A stretch of 64,000 nucleotides of DNA. Source: Xylographa opegraphella. Taxonomy: Eukaryota. Shown in pieces: positions 20,896-45,827 of this stretch. The number at the start of each line of letters is the position of its first letter. Position 1 is the first letter of the stretch. The stretch is from contig JALDZX010000018.1 of assembly GCA_022813865.1 (NCBI GenBank), positions 310,001 through 374,000 on the forward strand. The letters run 5' to 3'. The translations under genes and the position numbers were made by a program. A model generated the notes under the pieces. The model ran no database searches and was not told the DNA's origin. It saw only the letters and a list, made by a program, of their open reading frames with translations.

Positions 20896-21663
20896 ATGAA
20901 CACATCCCAGGGCACCAAGCCCCCTCTCCCTTCCACCGCCTCCGCCACCCTACTCAAACCTCCCCTCCCCTCCCCGGGTCTCCGCACCCCCTCCAACCGC
21001 AAGACCATCTACGACCGGAATCTCAACCGCACCCGGACCGCGGAGCTCAGCCGCGCCAGCTTCGCCTACCTCTTCAGCGAGATGGTCACGTACGCGCAGA
21101 AGCGCGTGACCGGCATCCAAGATCTCGAGCGGCGGTACGTACCCTCCCCGAGACCTTGCCGCTACGACCCCTTTTCTCCCGGCCAGACACACATTGCTGA
21201 CTCCTAGCCCTCTCGCAGGCTCAACGAGCAAGGCTACTCCCTCGGCGTGCGCCTGCTCCCCCTCCTCCTGTACCGCGCCCCTCCGCGCACGGCCACGCGG
21301 CCCACGCGCATCCTGCCGCTGCTGCAGTTCATCACGACGACGCTGTGGAAGCACCTCTTTGGCCGCCCAGCCGACGCGCTGGAGCGCTCCTCCGCCAACG
21401 AGGACGAGTACATGATCTCCGACAACGAGCCGCTGGTCAACATGTACGTCAGCGTGCCCAAGGAGATGAACCAGCTGAACTGCGCCGCCTACGTCGCTGG
21501 CATCATCGAGGGCGTGTGCGATGCCGCGGCGATGACGGCCGCTGTCAGTGCGCATAATGGCGGCACCGAGATGTGGCCCGGGAAGACGGTGTTCTTGATC
21601 AGGTTCGAGGCCGGGGTGGTGGAGAGGGAGGCGATACTGGAGGGGAAGGGCGTGACGGGGTGA
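20896..21663 (+). CDS. TRS31: TRAPP complex subunit Trs31/TRAPPC5
   Basis: FAYLFSEMV, LWKHLFG, EYMISDNEPLVN.YVSVPKEMNQLNCAAYVAGIIEG; intron 21135-21218. Confidence 0.93.
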
Positions 21664-21797
21664 GGGAGGGGGATTGGGTGCTGCTGATGGGGTTTTGCTG
21701 AGAGGATGGGGATGGGGCCATTGCATCGCGCGGTGTTCAAGGGATATGCATGGGAGGTGCAAGCATGCATTCGAGAAATATGCTTGATATAGATCGT

Positions 21798-23219
21798 TCA
21801 TACGTCGACTCTACGGCGTTTGTCCTCGTACCGCCTTTCATCCGGAGATGGGCTTCTTTTCCGTCTGTCTCTGCTGTCCCTCCTTCGCTGTCGTATTGGT
21901 GAAGGTGATCTGGATGTCGAATACGAGCGAGGTCGTCTGTCCTCAATATCCCGGTGCTCTCGGTCTGGCTTATAGCTTCCGCCTTGATTCCTCGACCATT
22001 GCTTTCCATCCGACGACGCGCGAGGTCCTTCCGGGGCATTCTCTGGAGCTCTCCTCCTTTCGCGGACCTGAGTTGCATTGGCACCGGAAGCTCCACCACC
22101 ACCTCCATCGCGATCCGGCATGAATCTTTCGTCTAAGCCGCCATCCCTCCGTGGACCTTTCCCTTCCAACGCTCCCCACTTCCCCGTATCCTCGCTCTTC
22201 AGGTCCTTGTACTTAGTCCGTCCTTTCCGGCCCAATTTTGTCATATCCCGGATCTGCATATACTGAGGCAGGAGTTCCCGGTTCGTCACATCATCCGCAT
22301 ACCGGCTCCCCATAATATCTCTCCTGTCCAGCCCTTCGGCTTTGGAGTCGTCCTGGAAAAATGCGCCTTTGTGGAAGTACTTCTGTAGATACCCCATCTT
22401 GCCTCGTCCCTCCTGTTCCTCCTTTTGCCCTTCGATAAATACTCTATCTTCCTCGTCTCTTTCTTCCTTGCTGAGATTCCGCCGCCGTTCGATCTCCTCT
22501 CTCTCCCTCTCAGCTACTTCAATGGCCTCCCGCTCTCTCTTCACGCGCTTCAGCTCTCGCAACTTCCACGCAGCCCGCTCAGCTTCCGGGTCCAGCCCAT
22601 CGATATCGTCGACTTCCTCTCCATCCGCCTCCTCATCGTCGTCCCAGTTCTTCTTTCCTGCCGCCTTGGCCGCTGCATTCTTTTCCAGTTGGGCCTGAAC
22701 AAGCTCGTCCGCTTTCTCCTTCCGCCTCGCCTCGTCCTCCGCCCACTTCTCCTCTTCAGTCTTCAAGTCCACTATTGCAGTAGTATACTTCCGCTTATCC
22801 TTCCTAATGAACGTTGGCCGAAGCAGAATCTTCGGCGCTTCCTCCTCACTGCTTTCTTCCTCTTCACTCTCCTCTTCTCCATCCTCGCTGCCCTCCTCCG
22901 ATTCGCTTGACTCGGTCTCAAACCCTTCCTCCTCCGCAGCTTGAGCGGCCTTTTCGGCTTCCAAGCGTGCTGTCTCTAGGGCAGAGGCTTCTGCACGGCG
23001 CGCATTGAGATCAACAGACTTCAGTGTGCTGGCGATCTTCGTGGCAGGGAACGAGGTAGCTTTAGGAGGTGGAGCTGTCTGCGGAGGTGAGGAGTGTGCA
23101 TCTTCCTCGGCTTGCGAATCCTCTTCGCCTTCGGAGGATGACTGAGGGTCTTCAGGACCTTTGCCGGGGCGATAGCGGGTGGGCTTGAGAGGATTGGCGG
23201 TCATGCGCTTGGGAGGCAT
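21798..23219 (-). CDS. MFAP1: MFAP1-family spliceosomal B-complex protein (Spp381/Saf3-like)
   Basis: 473-aa ORF; AWKLRELKRVKREREA, GYLQKYFHKGAFF, LPQYMQIR, GRKGRTKYKDL; RS-rich tail. Confidence 0.92.
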   Translation of the reverse strand: MPPKRMTANPLKPTRYRPGKGPEDPQSSSEGEEDSQAEEDAHSSPPQTAPPPKATSFPATKIASTLKSVDLNARRAEASALETARLEAEKAAQAAEEEGFETESSESEEGSEDGEEESEEEESSEEEAPKILLRPTFIRKDKRKYTTAIVDLKTEEEKWAEDEARRKEKADELVQAQLEKNAAAKAAGKKNWDDDEEADGEEVDDIDGLDPEAERAAWKLRELKRVKREREAIEVAEREREEIERRRNLSKEERDEEDRVFIEGQKEEQEGRGKMGYLQKYFHKGAFFQDDSKAEGLDRRDIMGSRYADDVTNRELLPQYMQIRDMTKLGRKGRTKYKDLKSEDTGKWGALEGKGPRRDGGLDERFMPDRDGGGGGASGANATQVRERRRAPENAPEGPRASSDGKQWSRNQGGSYKPDREHRDIEDRRPRSYSTSRSPSPIRQRRRDSRDRRKRSPSPDERRYEDKRRRVDV

Positions 23220-23234
23220 GGTGTAGATCAGCTA

Positions 23235-24390: not shown

Positions 24391-26084
24391 TCACAATCCC
24401 TCCACCGCAATCACAGGCGCATACAACGGACAAATATAATCCACCACGATCTGCCGAATCGTAACCTCACCAAACAGGCCATTCGGGCCCAGATCCCCCA
24501 GGTCCACATCCAGATGCGAGCCCAAGCGCGGCCACCCCGGCCCACCCGTCGGGTTCTTCGCGAACCGCGCCCACGCCGTCTGCATGTACGAGCTCAGCGC
24601 GACCTCCTGGGCCGTGGCGCCGGCGGTCGGGTACGTGCCGAACACGAGCGGGATCTCCGAGGAGTGGTACACGCCGGCGTCCGGGAAGGTCTGCGTGTTG
24701 GGGAAGCTGGCGTTGAAGTAGTAGCGCCAGGCGTCGTAGCCCGACGTCGAGGCGAGGTTGGCGAGCGCCGAGGTGGGGCAGAGGAAGGTGGCGTCGGTGA
24801 TGATGGCTGCGATGGCGAAGTAGGGGGTCTGATAGACGGAGAGCGGGTACGCGGCCGCGATGGCGGCTTGGAGGGCGGGCAGGCCCGGAAAGTTGGTGGC
24901 GAGGAAGGTGGTGATGTTCAGGGGCTCGTCGAGGCCGTCTTCGGCGGCGAAGGGGCGCCCTTCGTTGGCGTTGGTACCGATAAGGATGGGAACTTGCGCG
25001 GCAGTGTGGGAGGTGATGGCGAGGGCGACGTTGCCGGTCTCGGTCTTGTTGTCGACGGTCGGAGGAAAGGAGAGCGCCGCGTGCTCAATAACGCTCTTGA
25101 TCTTGGTGGCGGGGACGGCGCGCACGCAGTTTATCTGGGACGTTGCGGCGGTGCAACCGACTGCCGCGACCAAGGTTTCCCATGATGCTGGTCCCGAGCC
25201 CGTGAATGCGGCTGCTTCGCTTTCGAGAATGGCGGCCCGGAATGGAAGGGGAGACGGGGGCACACTGAAGAGCTCTTTGACAGAGTAGCCGCCAGCTGAC
25301 TCGCCGAAGATGGTAACCTTTTTTGGGTCGCCACCGAATTGCTTGATGTTCTGCTGGACCCATTGCAGAGCCATTCGCTGATCGAGGAAGCCGGCGTTTT
25401 GGGAGTCTATAGGGAGTTGAGGGGACGATGAGAATCCGAACACTGGACGAGCTCAGTGGCTTGTCCAGAGTTCTCCTTATGAATAAGGTGCTTACCATTC
25501 GTTCGATAGTTATGAGTTACGAGAACCACATCTTGATTGGCCGCAAATGATGAGCCATCGTAGGGCGGAATATTTGCAGTCCCGAACTGCAGATTGCCCC
25601 CATATATCCAGAACATAACAGTCCTGCCTGTTGCTGGGGCGGGACTGGCAGGTGTGTAGACATTCAGGTACAGGCAGTCTTCGCTTTCAACTGGAGGTGG
25701 TCCTCCAGGGTTGTTGAACACCGCCATAGTGAAGTTTCTCGATGGCTCAGGGTCTATACGAAAGTTAGAAGCTCGTGTGTCAACTTTCCATGCCGACAAC
25801 TCACAGTTGAATTGCTGTATACATGCGTCCTTGAGGGTCGCGGCATTTATTGGTTTGGACCATGACGCCGGGGCTGATGGAGGAGAGAATCGCTGCGGCG
25901 GCGACGCTGCGAATGGTATGCCAAGGAATTTATTGACTGCGACTGTTGCTGATGGTAGCGTCGTTGTAGTTCCAATAACTACTCCAGACGATATGGTTAC
26001 AGTGGGAATTGCAGCAGAGACAATCTGAACAACTAGCAGTAGAGAACACAAGGAAAGAGCGGTAAGAGGAGATTGAAAATGCAT
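24391..26084 (-). CDS. Secreted type-B carboxylesterase/lipase
   Basis: Signal peptide, FLGIPFA, SEDCLYLNV, WIYGG, NYRT, FGGDP..VTIFGESAG, HSSEIP; two introns. Confidence 0.93.
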
Positions 26085-27177
26085 TCTGTAATATCCGTCG
26101 AGCAGATGCGTACTCCCGAGTTCTTTATGCAGCAGAGACAGAGAAGAGAAAGGAGCAGATCAAGGGCCAGAGAGTAAAAAGAAACATAGGTTTCCACTCG
26201 AAGAAGAGGGGGAGCTTCATGACGAGAAGAGTTTTACCCAGTCTATCGAACGGCCGCGTGCACGAGCGCCGAGGTTATTGGCATTGCTACATAGCAGTAC
26301 CTGAGAACGGACAGCGATACCGAGGCTCACCATGGCAGAAGACGAGTGTAAAGCCATGAGGCCCAACCGCGAAGCGATCTCCCATGAATTGGTGGATTGC
26401 CTCTAGATTCCGAAATGCGGGGTTGGTGTTAGAATGAATATCCACAACTGCAAAATGAGTGGCCACTCAGTTTTCAAAGTGACCAGAGAACCTGCCAATA
26501 ACAGAACCCCTCTTCCGTACCTACCTTATTGGACTGTGGCGTTCGAGGTCGAACTTGTCATCTTCGGCGCTGGTGCGATGGTGCGAGAGCTCGGATACAC
26601 TCGGACTTATTAACATGGTGAGCCGATTCGCTCTTGGTCGACAGTCAGGTATGAGTCTTGATTGTTCGTTCTCAAACATCATACTTCTTTTAAGACCCTG
26701 AGCCACGAAGAAAGTGTTGAACATTCAGCACCTTGGTTGGCGAGAATAAGGCGTGTATTCCGATTGGTTCAGGATTTGTGACACTAGATCTTCAGTATTA
26801 ATTTATACTTATCTTACCCAGACTCAAGATATTGGGTTCATTTTTGCTTTGAGTTTATTCTGCTATGCATAGCAACATAGACTCTACCTAAGTCCCGTCC
26901 ACTCTTCAGACAACACTCCAATAACAGGAGTATCCTGTTTTACTGTTAGCCGCGAGAATACATGCTATAAAGAAAAGCTACAATTCTCTTCGCACGATGA
27001 GGACGTGCAGCCAATGTGAAGCTACACAGCTTGAAGTAGTAAACACAACTATTATTGGCCTGTATTTACCAGCCAGGCAAAAACGACCAAACACTGCCCA
27101 AACGCCATGTATTGCCATTGCTCAGAAAACAAAACGCCCCTCATCCTTTAGAAGACAATGCCAGTAAAAGTCATTCA

Positions 27178-40611: not shown

Positions 40612-40841
40612 GGGATATCAGATGCGGGGAGCTGAGTTGCACAGGGTGTGTATGAGAGATGTATAATGAGCAACGGTCTATACGTGTTTATAACTACTCA
40701 GACCACTGTATGAAACGTCGTTGAAGATCGTGTGCGGTGCCGGAGCGCATCTGGAATCGTTTATTGGCTTGCTCCTCCAAGTCTACTATAATACATTGAG
40801 AATAAAGACAGTTCATCCATGATCAGATCAAGATGTTGGTA

Positions 40842-42693
40842 TTACGACGATTCCCGAATCCTACATTGCCATCCGGAGTTTGCCTCCAGTAAAGGTAAAC
40901 TATCCCCGAGTTAGCTTTATGTAATTGGTGGTAGGTATTCCGGAAACTCATATACCTGGCTCCTAAACACCAACCCAACTCATTACCCTTGATCTTCTTT
41001 GCGATCCTCACTTCCCTATCAATCGGCATCTCATAGCCTGTATGCAACAACGCCATCATAAAGTTCAAATCAAGGCAGTATTCGGGCCGGTCCCTCAACT
41101 CATTGATGGCCCCATCCACGCCCTGGAATGTCTCCCAGCACTTCTCGCCCTGGCAGACCTTCTCCGTTAGATCTCGCAATTCTTTCAGAGTGAAGGATTC
41201 GGGCATGCCCAACGGCTGCGTTCTGTCGTAGAAATAGCTGAAGATGTACACGTCTTCACGTGCGAAAGTCATCTCGAGGGAAGGCTGGTGCACACCTCCG
41301 AATGAGCAAGGAGCCAACTCGCACTTTTCTTCTTTCTTAAGAATCCTCTCGGCCAGTCCTCGGCACTGAGCTGGGGCACCTGTCCAAGGACCCACCATGG
41401 TGGCGTTCAATTCTGTCCCGTCATCAAGTGTAACTTTCACTTCGGTACTCATGTTGGGAGCAATACAGGGATTCTCGATTGATCTGGTCATCCACGACTT
41501 GTCGGAGCCATAGTTATCGCTTACAGATTGAACCAAGGTCTTGTGCATGCTCTCGCGTGCAGACATGAGCCCGTAGCCCAGATGTGAATGCTGATAGAGC
41601 TCAAAGTCTCGGCCTCGGAAATTGAGCTTGTATTTGTGGTCACCCTCAGCTAACTTATCAGGCATACCCTTAGAAGGGCTTTTGAATATAGGCTGGAAGA
41701 CGATTTGGGTCGATCCACCGCCAAGGTCAAAGACAGCGGCTGTTGGAGATTTATCAGGGCCACCTATCTTGCCTAGAAGGTAGTTGGTTGTGATCCATGC
41801 GTAAACGCCCTCATCTTTACCTTCCATAACTACAACGCCATCCCTCTCCCTTGAGACAACGGGAAATGGATAAACCGTCTCCAGGCGAATACGAACAGCC
41901 TCAAGGATCTTGTCGCTCAATTCGGGCCCAAGCTTCCTCAATCCCGCTGTGGCTTTAACAGCAACAGGCGAGCAAAACTTGAGGTTGTCGGGCACTGTCT
42001 GCATAGCAACGTCCATGAGGACATCCAAACTCCTTGCGGCTCCTTCAGCATCAGCTCCAAACGAACTAAGACCGGAACCGCCCTTTTTAGGTTCTGTCAT
42101 CTTAAACTCCTCATGCTCGAGCTCGGGTGTGGCACCGCAATTGTTGAAACGGTACACATGTATTCGTGAGCCGGTACTGCCGGCATCAATCATTAAAGCA
42201 TATTGAATTAGAGGTTTATCGGAAGAATAGGACTTCGAGCACTTCGTTGTCCCAATAGATGGATCGGAGGATGAAGAACCGGAGCCAGAATTGCCTGTCA
42301 GGCGCATTAGCACTTGTTCCTCCAATATCCAAGCAAATATCCAAGCTGTCGCTTGCAGCCGAGCAAGAACTGTAACATACCAACCAAGTCCCCAACATTT
42401 GCCCTTCCATTTGGGCTAAGCAAAAAGAAAAGAAATATAAAGACGGCAATCAGACCCCCAGCCCTCAAGAATCTGGCACGCTGACTTTGCGTCATCCAGG
42501 CGTTTTTGAGGGACTCCACCGCGCCGGCTGGGCCGTTGGCCGAGTTGTTACTGGTATGTCTCTGGGCCTTCTCGAAGGGATCGTGCTGGGCGTTGCGGGT
42601 GGGAAGTGTCACTGAGCGTCTGCGTGGCGAGGAAGTGAAGCTAATATAGGACCATAAGCTGGGTCGACGACGAGCATCGATTCCAGTTGACAT
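40842..42693 (-). CDS. GDA1: Golgi guanosine diphosphatase (GDA1/CD39 family)
   Basis: Apyrase regions DAGSTGSR, ATAGLR, EGVYAW, DLGGGSTQ, GWCLGA; N-terminal TM anchor; two introns. Confidence 0.93.
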
Positions 42694-43535
42694 AGAGATG
42701 TGGGAGTATTGGCGGATAGAAAGCAAGCAGTTACCCGGACTTCGAGGGCTCCTGCCACAATGAAGAGCGCAAAGAAATTGCAGCTGGAATAAAAGCGTGA
42801 AAGACTGTTGATTGATCGATTACATCCACATTGTATGGTGAAAGGCAGGGGACACGAAAAGGAATGGAGATCAGTCCTCCGTACAGTTGTTGACTCGTGT
42901 TTGCTTGCGCATGGAAACCGAAAAAATTCAGGGGTCCAAACCCTGATGAAGCCAAGGATCATCTAACCATCTAAGGTTAGAGTATCCTGCTTGTGCTTTG
43001 GAGATTTCCAGTCGACAAACGACTTCGACGAACAACTTCGTCTCCTTGCAAATGATCCTCATGTTGCGTCTAATACACGCGAATAATTGTGAATCATAAA
43101 TACTACATCCGTATAATTGCCATCGAACGTGCTAGTATGAATGTCCTCGAATCTCGAACGCCCGGTAATTTGTACTTTTACTTGCTTCAGTGGTGGGCAC
43201 TGTGTGCACTGACTGATGCACCATTAAGATCATCTTTACACAAACTGTGTCCAGAAGGTTGTGGGAAAGCATGCTGTAACGTAAAAGCATCTCTTGGCTA
43301 TTAAAGGTGGGTGTGAAGTATTTCCCATGTAAACATCCATCGAATTCTGTGTATTTCCTTCTCCGTATCTTCCTTGTAGAATCACGAAACAGCACCAGGC
43401 ATACTTTTTCCTTCTTTATCATCCCTTACATAAAAACTTAAGAACAATTTTAAAAAACGAGAGAGAAGAACAGAAGAACACCCAAAAGTGAGGAAGAGCC
43501 AGTTTCCCTATCATAGCGTGACCGTGGTCGCTGCC

Positions 43536-43780
43536 AAAAAAAAAAGTCAGCTCCCAGCTAGAGGCCAGGGCGACAAAAAGTTCAGATACCCGGATGGATA
43601 TCTTATGAAAACCCTTATACTATCAGGGATTTTACTCCAGTGCAGGTCTAAGGCGAATGTGCTTTTGGTAATGCCGGTGCAATTACGTGGACTTTCAACC
43701 ACACTCGCTGGGCTCGAACCCAGAACCTGTTCGCGGTGCTCTAAAGCATCCGCGCTTGATCCGTTGAGCTAAATCGGTGG
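43536..43780 (-). ncRNA. Putative RNA polymerase III unit: degenerate tRNA-like head plus structured 3' RNA
   Basis: Box A TAGCTCAACGG (43771-43761), box B GGTTCGAGCCC (43720-43710), several hairpins, T10 run at 43545-43536. Confidence 0.55.
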
Positions 43781-44135
43781 GATAAAACCCCGGATCGGCG
43801 ATGGAGGATATTCTTCTTATCTTAAATATAAAGGCATCATCCAGTTTGAAAGATTTGACCATGATTCGTGCAGCAGTACTCATTCTGTACCATAACATCG
43901 ATTACAACATATTATAGGTTTATCTACATTGCTGTACATGCTGGAGAGGGTCTTCACAGTGCTGTAGATGTTGAATCGGGTCTCCAGACTGCGTGCATTC
44001 TCGTGTACTAGCACCACTGCAACAGGGGACGTACACCTTGGAAATGCACACTTGTTACGTAACATCCATACGTTATTGCATTAATATCTATCATTATGCT
44101 TCTTACATTGCGTTGGCACAAAAGCTACTTAGATG

Positions 44136-44894
44136 TTATTGTCGCAACAGCAACCCAAGCAGAACCACCAAGCCCATCTCCACCCCAACCCGCAAAGCTC
44201 CTGCCGTATTGGTAGCCACACTCAGCGGCGCCGTCCCTGCCACCGAAGCTGAAAGTGTAGCCGAAGACACAATCGTAGCATTCGCACTCGGCGCCCCAGC
44301 GGAAAACCCAGCGGAAAACCCAGCACTCCCAGCGTTTTGCGGGGCCGTCGACGTAATAACCAAAACAGTCGGCGGCAGCGGCGCAGGAGTCATCGTCACT
44401 ATACTCGTGTACACCCGCGCCACAGGCATACTGGTCGTCGCCGACAACAGCGGCGCGACCGTGGGCAAGGTGTTGATACTCGAACTCGCCGTCCCCTGCG
44501 GTATTCCGTCGCACAAGAACGCCACTGAGAGGTATTCCACCATGCCCAAGCAGATTCCATCTAGGCTAGTCCCAGTACCTTCGATAGTCTGGTCCGCAGG
44601 ATGGGCTTGGTATAAGGTCTTGCAGTTTGTATCTGAGTACAGTGCGAACGAGCCACGAGTGCCATTGGCGCACATGGGGCGGCTGTCGACAATGAAGCTG
44701 TTATAGCCACCGTTAAAGCTCACGACAGGGCCCGGGGAGCCGCAGATGTCGGGAGCGACGGTATAGTTGTTGGCGAACACTGGGTCCTGGCAGCCGGCGT
44801 CGGCGAAAACGGTGACAGAGCCGGTGGAGATGGCGGAATTGAGGGTGGGGCACAGTAGGAGAAGAGTCAGTAACGACAGTATTGAGGATGACAT
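44136..44894 (-). CDS. Secreted, probably GPI-anchored Cys-patterned cell-surface protein
   Basis: Signal MSSSILSLLTLLLLCPTLNSA, six-Cys domain ending SVAFLCDG, Ser/Thr stalk, hydrophobic C-terminus. Confidence 0.8.
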   Translation of the reverse strand: MSSSILSLLTLLLLCPTLNSAISTGSVTVFADAGCQDPVFANNYTVAPDICGSPGPVVSFNGGYNSFIVDSRPMCANGTRGSFALYSDTNCKTLYQAHPADQTIEGTGTSLDGICLGMVEYLSVAFLCDGIPQGTASSSINTLPTVAPLLSATTSMPVARVYTSIVTMTPAPLPPTVLVITSTAPQNAGSAGFSAGFSAGAPSANATIVSSATLSASVAGTAPLSVATNTAGALRVGVEMGLVVLLGLLLRQ

Positions 44895-45827
44895 TCTGGG
44901 AGTGCCTGAACGAATGTGGAGCGTACGAGTGGAAGAACAGTAGCGACAGGATACAGGATGGACTGGATGTGCGATGAAAAGAGAGTGGGGTGGTGTATAA
45001 TATACGAGGGCAGACGACACGAGGGATTGGTGGTATCTGCCAAGGCCCAGCTGGATTGGACCAAATCTAGTGACAGCCGCGGTGCAGGGGTTGCAAGGTG
45101 CCAAGCAGTATGGGAGGATTCGGGATGGAGATGAGGAAAGCCATCGCCCACGAAAGGAATTCACACTGGCCAACGTTTGGCAGAACGACACGAGAGGAAC
45201 ACCCACTCAATAAGTATCTCAGAGACAGAGAATCCCCGGACGTTGAGATAGACTAGTCGTGGAGATCTAGAGCTGTACCATCGAAAGTCCGGCGTGCCAG
45301 CTCCCGGTTAGCTCTGGCAAGGTAACTCTAGTGGTCGGCCTTGACTAATGATATTTCTAGTAATTTTGAACACCATCCAGACGTGATTCAATCCCTACGT
45401 TGTCATAATGCTGCAAAAAAACAATAGCTCAAACCCATCTAAGCAGAATCAAGAATAATGGTTGGCGATCCAGATAACCATCGGCTCATAAAATAACATT
45501 AGGACACCCGTGCTATCGAGAAACGACAGTATGTTTAGCAAAGATACCAATTTTGCCATTACTTTGATAGCATTGATGACAGCAGTTGTTCAACTACCCT
45601 TGACGAAGCAAGCATAACATGAGCCTATCCTCAGTAGCTGGATAAAGTATACCACTGCGCTCAGTAATTAACCAACCAGTGTTCTGATGTAGTCGTTCAG
45701 CACGCTTTCTCTTGCGATCGATGTCTATTTCATAAAGCCGCTCATCATCCATGTCTAGAATAATCTAAGATATTCCTCCTCCAGAACTCCTCCCTCAATC
45801 ATATCTCCAATTTCAAACCAATCATCC

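Follow-up and report, generated by a model that had tools for sequence, protein, structure and literature searches.

What is the Pol III-type unit of 225-265 bases that lies on the minus strand upstream of GDA1 in the Xylographa opegraphella window? The window is the whole stretch of DNA that was analysed, 64,000 nucleotides of contig JALDZX010000018.1 (assembly GCA_022813865.1, positions 310,001 to 374,000), and all positions below are counted from its first letter. A first-pass annotation had read the unit as a broken tRNA used as leader for a separate RNA of about 150 nt, with a SINE as the alternative. From its sequence, the unit appears to be an intact Pol III type-2 transcription unit on a decayed tRNA, one copy of a small, low-copy dispersed family, for which a SINE-like, tRNA-derived origin is the most probable one; we put the probability of this reading at about 0.45.

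Genes are densely packed in the window, which comes from a filamentous fungus. The unit lies in a 1.4-kb spacer that runs from the stop of a Ser/Thr-rich frame (44136) to the start of GDA1, the latter ~850 nt downstream of the unit, and all three are on the minus strand. The neighbouring genes are:

40823-42307 and on, minus strand: GDA1/CD39 (Pfam, E = 4e-99)
44136-44894, minus strand: Ser/Thr/Ala-rich frame of 252 aa with hydrophobic N-terminus and C-terminus and without a Pfam match, the gene directly upstream of the Pol III-type unit

The sequence of the 252-aa frame looks like that of a secreted or GPI-anchored wall protein. The other frames of the window recognised by Pfam include a PUL-thioredoxin protein, kinesin, Vps16, eIF4E and eIF2B; a transposon protein or reverse transcriptase was found in none of the 27 open frames scanned. 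At 60142-62641 (minus strand) there are frames with zinc-dependent dehydrogenase (enoyl reductase type), KR and ACP domains. By this domain content they make up the 3' portion of a gene for a highly reducing polyketide synthase, and the position of these domains at the end of the window suggests a secondary-metabolite cluster there. A carboxylesterase-family gene at 24394-26159 (minus strand) extends over two frames (Pfam positions 3-142 and 144-483), which are most likely separated by an intron.

The promoter elements and the arms of the tRNA-like head are as follows:

43832-43822, minus strand: TATA-like TTTATATTTAA, read from the sequence, 51-61 nt upstream of box A
43800-43790, minus strand: 5' motif CGCCGATCCGG, near the expected start site and near-identical in two other copies
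43771-43761, minus strand: box A TAGCTCAACGG, two mismatches to TRGCNNAGTGG
43754-43732, minus strand: extended arm, predicted by folding, at the place of the anticodon arm (9 bp, one bulge, 4-nt loop UUAG)
43723-43708, minus strand: T-like arm that holds box B, its loop one base short
43720-43710, minus strand: box B GGTTCGAGCCC, no mismatch to GGTTCGANNCC, inside the T-like arm

Box A and box B start 51 nt apart. The first-pass annotation had described consensus boxes at tRNA spacing on the minus strand; they are where it placed them, and they form the sole such pair in the 128 kb of the two strands. Box-B-like sites with at most one mismatch number 16 on both strands, and just one of these, that of the unit, has a box A (at most two mismatches) 35-75 nt upstream. 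Of the features by which a Pol III type-2 gene is recognised, the internal box A and box B at tRNA-like spacing are therefore present, and oligo-T downstream on the same strand is found twice, as T5 and T10 (below). The type-2 layout is well supported by the unique A/B pair, the degenerate tRNA head and the two T runs. The TATA-like TTTATATTTAA is, by its position, a possible candidate for a TFIIIB-positioning element. The window holds one other exact box-B word, GGTTCGAGGCC at 21602 on the plus strand, which overlaps two frames of the opposite (minus) strand, 20950-21810 and 21798-23231, the latter a match to MFAP1. We take this word to be a chance occurrence, since it has no box A upstream and lies within the span of long opposite-strand frames.

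The head is clearly tRNA-derived and degenerate, as judged from its sequence. ARAGORN finds no tRNA gene in the window, either with default settings or with introns allowed, and no tRNA model of Rfam is matched by the whole window at gathering score or by stretches of 701 nt and 121 nt at E up to 10. The first-pass annotation had seen imperfect stems in the head, and the cloverleaf that defines a tRNA gene (acceptor, anticodon and T arms) is lacking. At a threshold of 80%, ARAGORN returns a forced Arg(tct) model, which requires an intron of 21 nt and draws a false T arm, passing over the real box B; a tRNA with a long intron, for which this model at a lowered threshold is the sole support, was rejected. 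The arm at 43754-43732 differs from an anticodon arm of 5 bp and 7 nt, and it lies inside the 38-43-nt head stretch matched by two other contigs. Folds of the 255-nt and the 226-nt stretch predict no acceptor-like stem usable by RNase P or RNase Z, which argues against a tRNA-like leader that would be cut off.

Downstream of the head there are ~165 structured bases and then T10; the part between the head and a 38-nt 3' module is a structured body of ~110 nt. The elements are:

43708-43653, minus strand: predicted body arm, whose lower stem of 9 bp (GCGAGUGUG/CACAUUCGC) leads through a large internal loop to an upper hairpin (43686-43668)
43633-43608, minus strand: hairpin 1 AAAAUCCCU/AGGGUUUU, 8 bp with one bulged U
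43612-43575, minus strand: 3' module composed of linker, hairpin 2, GAAC and T5, conserved on other contigs (z = -2.57)
43603-43584, minus strand: hairpin 2 AGAUAUCC/GGGUAUCU, 8 bp, loop AUCC
43579-43575, minus strand: T5, the first run of at least five T after box B, directly behind hairpin 2 and GAAC
43574-43546, minus strand: hairpin 3, G+C-rich, between T5 and T10, in this copy only
43545-43536, minus strand: T10, the longest T run of the window, 29 nt beyond T5

Folding recovers the hairpins and the terminal stem described earlier (43633-43608, 43603-43584 and 43574-43546). The 226-nt stretch 43800-43575 folds at -74.4 kcal/mol (z = -3.33), and 0/200 shuffles are as stable; for the 255-nt stretch z = -2.27, with 4/200 shuffles as stable. 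Among the parts, the body arm has a predicted energy of -17.4 kcal/mol (z = -2.32, 3/200 shuffles as good) and hairpin 3 with T10 one of -13.2 kcal/mol (0.91 of the ensemble, z = -2.04). The head gives z = -1.85. Hairpin 1 with the module gives z = -0.75, and two folds compete there. In the predicted minimum-energy fold of the 226-nt RNA the 5' strand of hairpin 1 pairs instead with the 5' leader GGGGUUUUAU (43791-43782), and the leader helix closes head and body into one multi-branch domain; the short-range fold leads to hairpin 1. The leader GGGGUUUUAU nearly repeats AGGGUUUU, the 3' strand of hairpin 1, and each of the two is able to pair with AAAAUCCC. This leader sequence is absent from the leader of two related contigs (records 2 and 5, below), and the predicted alternative pairing could be a switch or a coincidence. 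By our own reading and in the folds, the bases just 3' of the T-like arm are taken up by the lower stem of the body arm. Head and body thus look like one folded domain, which again counts against a separable leader, as the lower stem begins right after the T-like arm.

T runs of this kind are rare: the two strands (128 kb) hold 91 runs of at least five T and four of at least seven. The T10 reported by the first-pass annotation is real and is the longest of these four. The 'Sm-like' site of that annotation is also present and reads AACUUUUUG, but it contains T5, a possible Pol III stop that had not been considered. Analysis of the runs in their context makes T5 a likely weak primary Pol III terminator, and T10 is a candidate strong or fail-safe one. 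Because T5 stands directly after a hairpin, the RNA may end ~35 nt earlier, with hairpin 3 and T10 as fail-safe. For Saccharomyces cerevisiae, excerpts of PMC9278858 describe T4-5 tracts as weak Pol III terminators that are improved by RNA structure just upstream, and they add that such tracts are commonly backed by further T tracts and that T≥6 is strong. As far as these excerpts go, yeast tRNA genes have the same arrangement as the unit, T4-5 behind RNA structure and then a longer, hairpin-preceded T tract within tens of bases, whereas the yeast pair of weak and strong terminators belongs to genuine tRNA genes (PMC9278858). Hairpin 3 with T10 (43574-43536) weakly resembles hairpin 2 with T5 (43603-43575): 15/29 bases of the latter fall in invariant columns, and the 3' strands of both hairpins read C-GGG..CUGA(A)C-Tn. 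Possibly a tandem copy of the end of the module has decayed into the fail-safe terminator.

In transcription, TFIIIC would bind both boxes and place TFIIIB near the TATA-like element, with a start around 43800-43785. Most polymerases would stop at the hairpin-assisted T5, and the main product may thus be an RNA of ~210-225 nt with a U tail, not one of ~250-265 nt, the length expected from the remaining polymerases that would stop at T10.

Relatives of the unit were found in the same genome. When the contigs of its public sequencing run (98,362 contigs, 30.6 Mb) were compared with window positions 42000-44900 (2,901 nt) at 80% likeness, 5/98,362 matched: the locus itself and four other loci that carry parts of the unit. 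Five loci are a lower bound, as copies diverged beyond 80% likeness escape. All the matching contigs have single-copy depth (~160). Record 2 carries both ends in the same order and on the same strand, the head at 43772-43735 (38 nt, 3 differences) and the 3' module at 43592-43574 (19 nt, 0 differences); from head start to module end it measures 166 nt, 33 nt shorter than the 199 nt seen here. In records 3 and 4 the match is confined to the 3' module: record 3 covers 43612-43575 with 1 difference and, in the loop region, two gaps of one base each, and record 4 covers 43610-43575 with 4 differences and 1 gap. Record 5 has the head only (43772-43730, 43 nt, 7 differences). What the loci have in common is therefore a 38-43-nt head piece and/or the 38-nt 3' module, and the sequence between these is unlike; against record 2 this copy is 92-100% alike in head and tail, with a middle that cannot be aligned at 80%. 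Upstream of the head, records 2 and 5 (mutual agreement 0.85) have the motif C(G/A)CCGATCCGG in common with this copy and show A for the first G of CGCCGATCCGG (read by hand, reverse-complemented). Within the window blastn (word size 7) finds no further copy; the best other match is 23 nt long (E = 0.05).

Many dispersed copies had been named beforehand as an argument against a new RNA gene. This has come true in part, since four other contigs bear the head and/or the 3' module, but the copies are few. The four contigs shift the odds toward a SINE-like family and away from a one-off new RNA gene.

Searches of metagenome, genome and viral contigs outside this genome yielded no relatives. An 18-nt motif of the 3' module occurs at 34 metagenome loci, which were rejected as chance: the 5' strand of the hairpin is absent from the 45 nt upstream (by eye), and the 230 nt upstream contain no box-B-like word at any of the 34 loci. 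With a gapped pattern of 21 bases, one locus was obtained in genome contigs, likewise rejected, which lies inside a 300-aa bacterial open frame and has no T run after it; viral contigs gave 0 loci. A full-text search with six motifs of 13-15 letters found no publication that prints the motifs of the unit. Contigs from two other organisms of the same study match a GDA1 stretch, 42092-42261, at depths of 315 and 390, one of them with 30 differences in 170 letters, and their further matches within the 2.9-kb stretch are only short low-depth pieces at 42471-42660. The cover by these contigs is on GDA1 coding parts only and leaves out the RNA region, which proves nothing about absence.

The unit does not belong to a known RNA family either. 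The whole window has 0 Rfam hits at gathering scores, and stretches of 701, 121 and 186 nt searched at E up to 10 give only chance-level miRNA, lncRNA, riboswitch-fragment and snoRNA rows. The snoRNA rows score 13.1 and 11 bits, compared with gathering scores of 45 and 50; a match to a known snoRNA or snRNA, which would have spoken against a new RNA, was thus not obtained. RNaseP_nuc and RNase_MRP have no hit downstream of the head at E up to 10. Several candidates were rejected by inspection. GAAAGUCC and ACAUUCGCCUUA resemble the P4 strands of RNase P or MRP RNA and fail to pair as P4 (by hand), nor does Rfam support this assignment. There are three CUGA, and no C box (RUGAUGA) of a C/D snoRNA can be read; the CUGA of the module lies inside a Watson-Crick stem. 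An H or ACA box at the right distance is missing, which removes the H/ACA snoRNA, the motifs of a hammerhead ribozyme are in the wrong order, and a U2-like branch-point loop (UAGUA) is only a short word. Pre-miRNA-type hairpins as in herpesvirus tRNA-miRNA units were also set aside, as the stems here are only 8-9 bp.

A SINE-like origin would account for the dispersal. The family would have spread by RNA-mediated copying, and the conserved 3' hairpin and T-rich end would be the part recognised by a reverse transcriptase or an RNA-binding protein. The unit is a short (<1 kb), interspersed, non-tandem repeat, with parts on four other contigs; heads and tails are held in common separately, bodies are unlike, and the most conserved part is a 3' stem-loop. 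Thus the SINE alternative of the first-pass annotation gains dispersed relatives, but copies are few, and neither a target-site duplication nor a clear simple-repeat tail accompanies them. The best flanking repeats are a 5-mer (1373/2000 shuffles as good) and a 7-mer (226/2000), and no target-site duplication was recognised. A 7-nt direct repeat, AAACTGG (43841-43847 and ~43500-43506, minus strand), flanks the unit together with the TATA-like element and T10 and is not significant. The sequence has no A-rich tail and no clear simple-repeat or microsatellite tail; the unit ends in T runs, and behind the module the copies carry a short C-T(n)-G unit one or two times (read by hand). A SINE is by definition reverse-transcribed by a partner LINE that has the same tail, and no partner LINE or reverse transcriptase is among the 27 window frames scanned. 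Mg-SINE and Foxy are classical tRNA-derived SINEs with a LINE-derived 3' tail, and to our knowledge a T-run ending is unusual among described fungal SINEs.

The definitions of SINEBase, in the excerpts of PMC3531059 used here, describe SINE families and their partner elements as having heads and tails in common separately, with unlike bodies, set a threshold of 60% identity to a tRNA species across 60 nt or more, list a 3' tail of simple repeats, and give a mean SINE length of 253 nt, to which the 225-265 nt of the unit are close. They also ask for 100 copies, whereas we find at least five loci among 98,362 contigs at 80% likeness (PMC3531059, excerpts). As portrayed in that part of the source, classical tRNA-derived SINEs are like the unit in their head, body and tail modules, their internal Pol III promoter, their length near the mean and their conserved 3' stem-loop (PMC3531059). 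The unit differs from them in its copies, far below 100, in having neither a clear simple-repeat or A-rich tail nor a target-site duplication, in the lack of a partner LINE among the window frames, and in that a Pol III stop signal ends the conserved module (PMC3531059, same excerpts). Closer parallels come from Aspergillus fumigatus, for which excerpts of PMC5063351 list eight tRNA-related, non-cloverleaf elements of 140-493 bp with 1 to ~5 copies, 5/8 of them transcribed. According to the published description, again in part, AfuSINE2 is like the unit in coming from a filamentous ascomycete and in having A and B boxes in a non-cloverleaf, tRNA-related 5' part before an unrelated body; its elements are likewise of low copy number and inserted in gene-rich regions (PMC5063351). 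They have target-site duplications of 4-14 bp, and one has a LINE-like (ACT)n tail, whereas the unit has neither and ends in T runs; the AfuSINE2 boxes are described there as degenerate, unlike the perfect box B of the unit (PMC5063351).

The same copies can be read in another way, which we hold to be possible but less likely: a previously undescribed family of Pol III small-RNA genes, each built from a promoter head of tRNA origin, a body of its own and a 3' handle common to all, kept by selection and not by parasitic spread. The handle (hairpin 1, hairpin 2, GAAC and the U tail) would bind a La, Lsm or LARP-type protein, the members would differ in target or partner through their variable bodies, and each gene would have its own pair of weak and fail-safe terminators. 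The uneven conservation, 92-100% in the head and 3' module shared with record 2 and not alignable at 80% in the middle, favours such genes and counts against a SINE-like origin, because neutral decay from one master would not give it. The ends of the related contigs, 30-letter consensus sequences that were read by hand without a statistical test, point the same way. In 3/3 module-bearing contigs the likeness to this copy stops sharply, right after the T run (from 43574 onward), and a second T run of each locus's own follows within ~30 nt of the module. This copy has T10 there; in the related contigs the run comes within a few bases, as T5 in record 2 and as T7 in the joint consensus of records 3 and 4, although T7 may belong to one record only, as these two agree at just 0.67. 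By chance a run of at least five T within 35 nt is expected at ~2.5% of places. That every copy seen has such a second run suggests that termination has been selected for, as would be the case in genes. The second run of this copy is the longest of the window and has a stable hairpin before it, which matches the fail-safe terminators of real Pol III genes as given in excerpts of PMC9278858.

Hairpin 1 adds to the case for selected genes. The sequence that precedes the module in records 3 and 4 is not that of this copy and can nevertheless form the hairpin, so that hairpin 1 varies between the three copies yet stays pairable. Compared by hand, the four pairs at the top of the stem are CCCU/AGGG in this copy, GGCU/AGUU in record 3 and ACCU/AGGU in record 4, with a similar loop UAnAGUA. 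The TATA-like element at a fitting distance, the missing target-site duplication and the gene-dense region, with transposon genes absent nearby (Pfam, 27 frames), also agree with genes. Against them stand the nature of the comparative evidence, which consists of the hand-read contig ends, the lack of relatives in the searches outside the genome, and the fact that LINE/SINE 3' tails too can retain hairpins with compensatory changes. We know of no multi-copy Pol III RNA family of such a kind in fungi. It is for this reason, and because the comparative evidence is thin, that we place the SINE-like origin above a family of selected genes.

A dead tRNA gene or tRNA retropseudogene, next to which the hairpins and T runs would be meaningless, is improbable. 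The clearly tRNA-derived, degenerate head is what such a relic would leave, but the loss of the stems has spared the promoter, with its perfect box B and good box A. Moreover, three other contigs repeat the 3' module, which is no part of a tRNA, T5 and T10 have the positions of terminators in a window poor in such runs, and the whole 226-nt unit is more stable than 200/200 shuffles.

The yeast genes RPR1 and SNR52 begin with a tRNA-like leader that contains the A and B boxes and is removed, and they end in T runs; both are single genes for known RNAs, RPR1 for RNase P RNA and SNR52 for a C/D snoRNA. A leader of this type, which would carry the promoter and be cut off to release a separate RNA of ~110-150 nt, is the least probable of the explanations: A/B boxes upstream of a structured RNA that ends in T runs do repeat the RPR1/SNR52 layout in outline, but here the downstream part matches no Rfam family (RNase P RNA, MRP RNA, snoRNA or other) even at E up to 10 and shows no C box or H/ACA layout by reading, the unit is multi-copy, head and body are predicted to fold together with no acceptor-like stem to guide RNase P or Z, and the copies have 38-43 nt of the head in common, far more than the length of box A. 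The broken-tRNA leader of a 150-nt RNA, as first proposed, is accordingly improbable.

For the fungus itself, the cassette of A/B boxes, TATA-like element and terminators is a candidate native Pol III promoter for guide-RNA expression, and a TFIIIC/TFIIIB complex, if bound ~850 nt upstream of the GDA1 start, could influence the GDA1 promoter. Annotation pipelines leave such units unlabelled, as there is neither a tRNA call nor an Rfam hit. If the copies are selected genes, they would be the first multi-member fungal Pol III small-RNA family beyond tRNA and 5S, with a conserved 3' protein handle. If the unit is SINE-like, it would be a further example of how gene-rich fungal DNA can harbour tRNA-derived Pol III units at low copy number, here with T-run and not A-rich ends.
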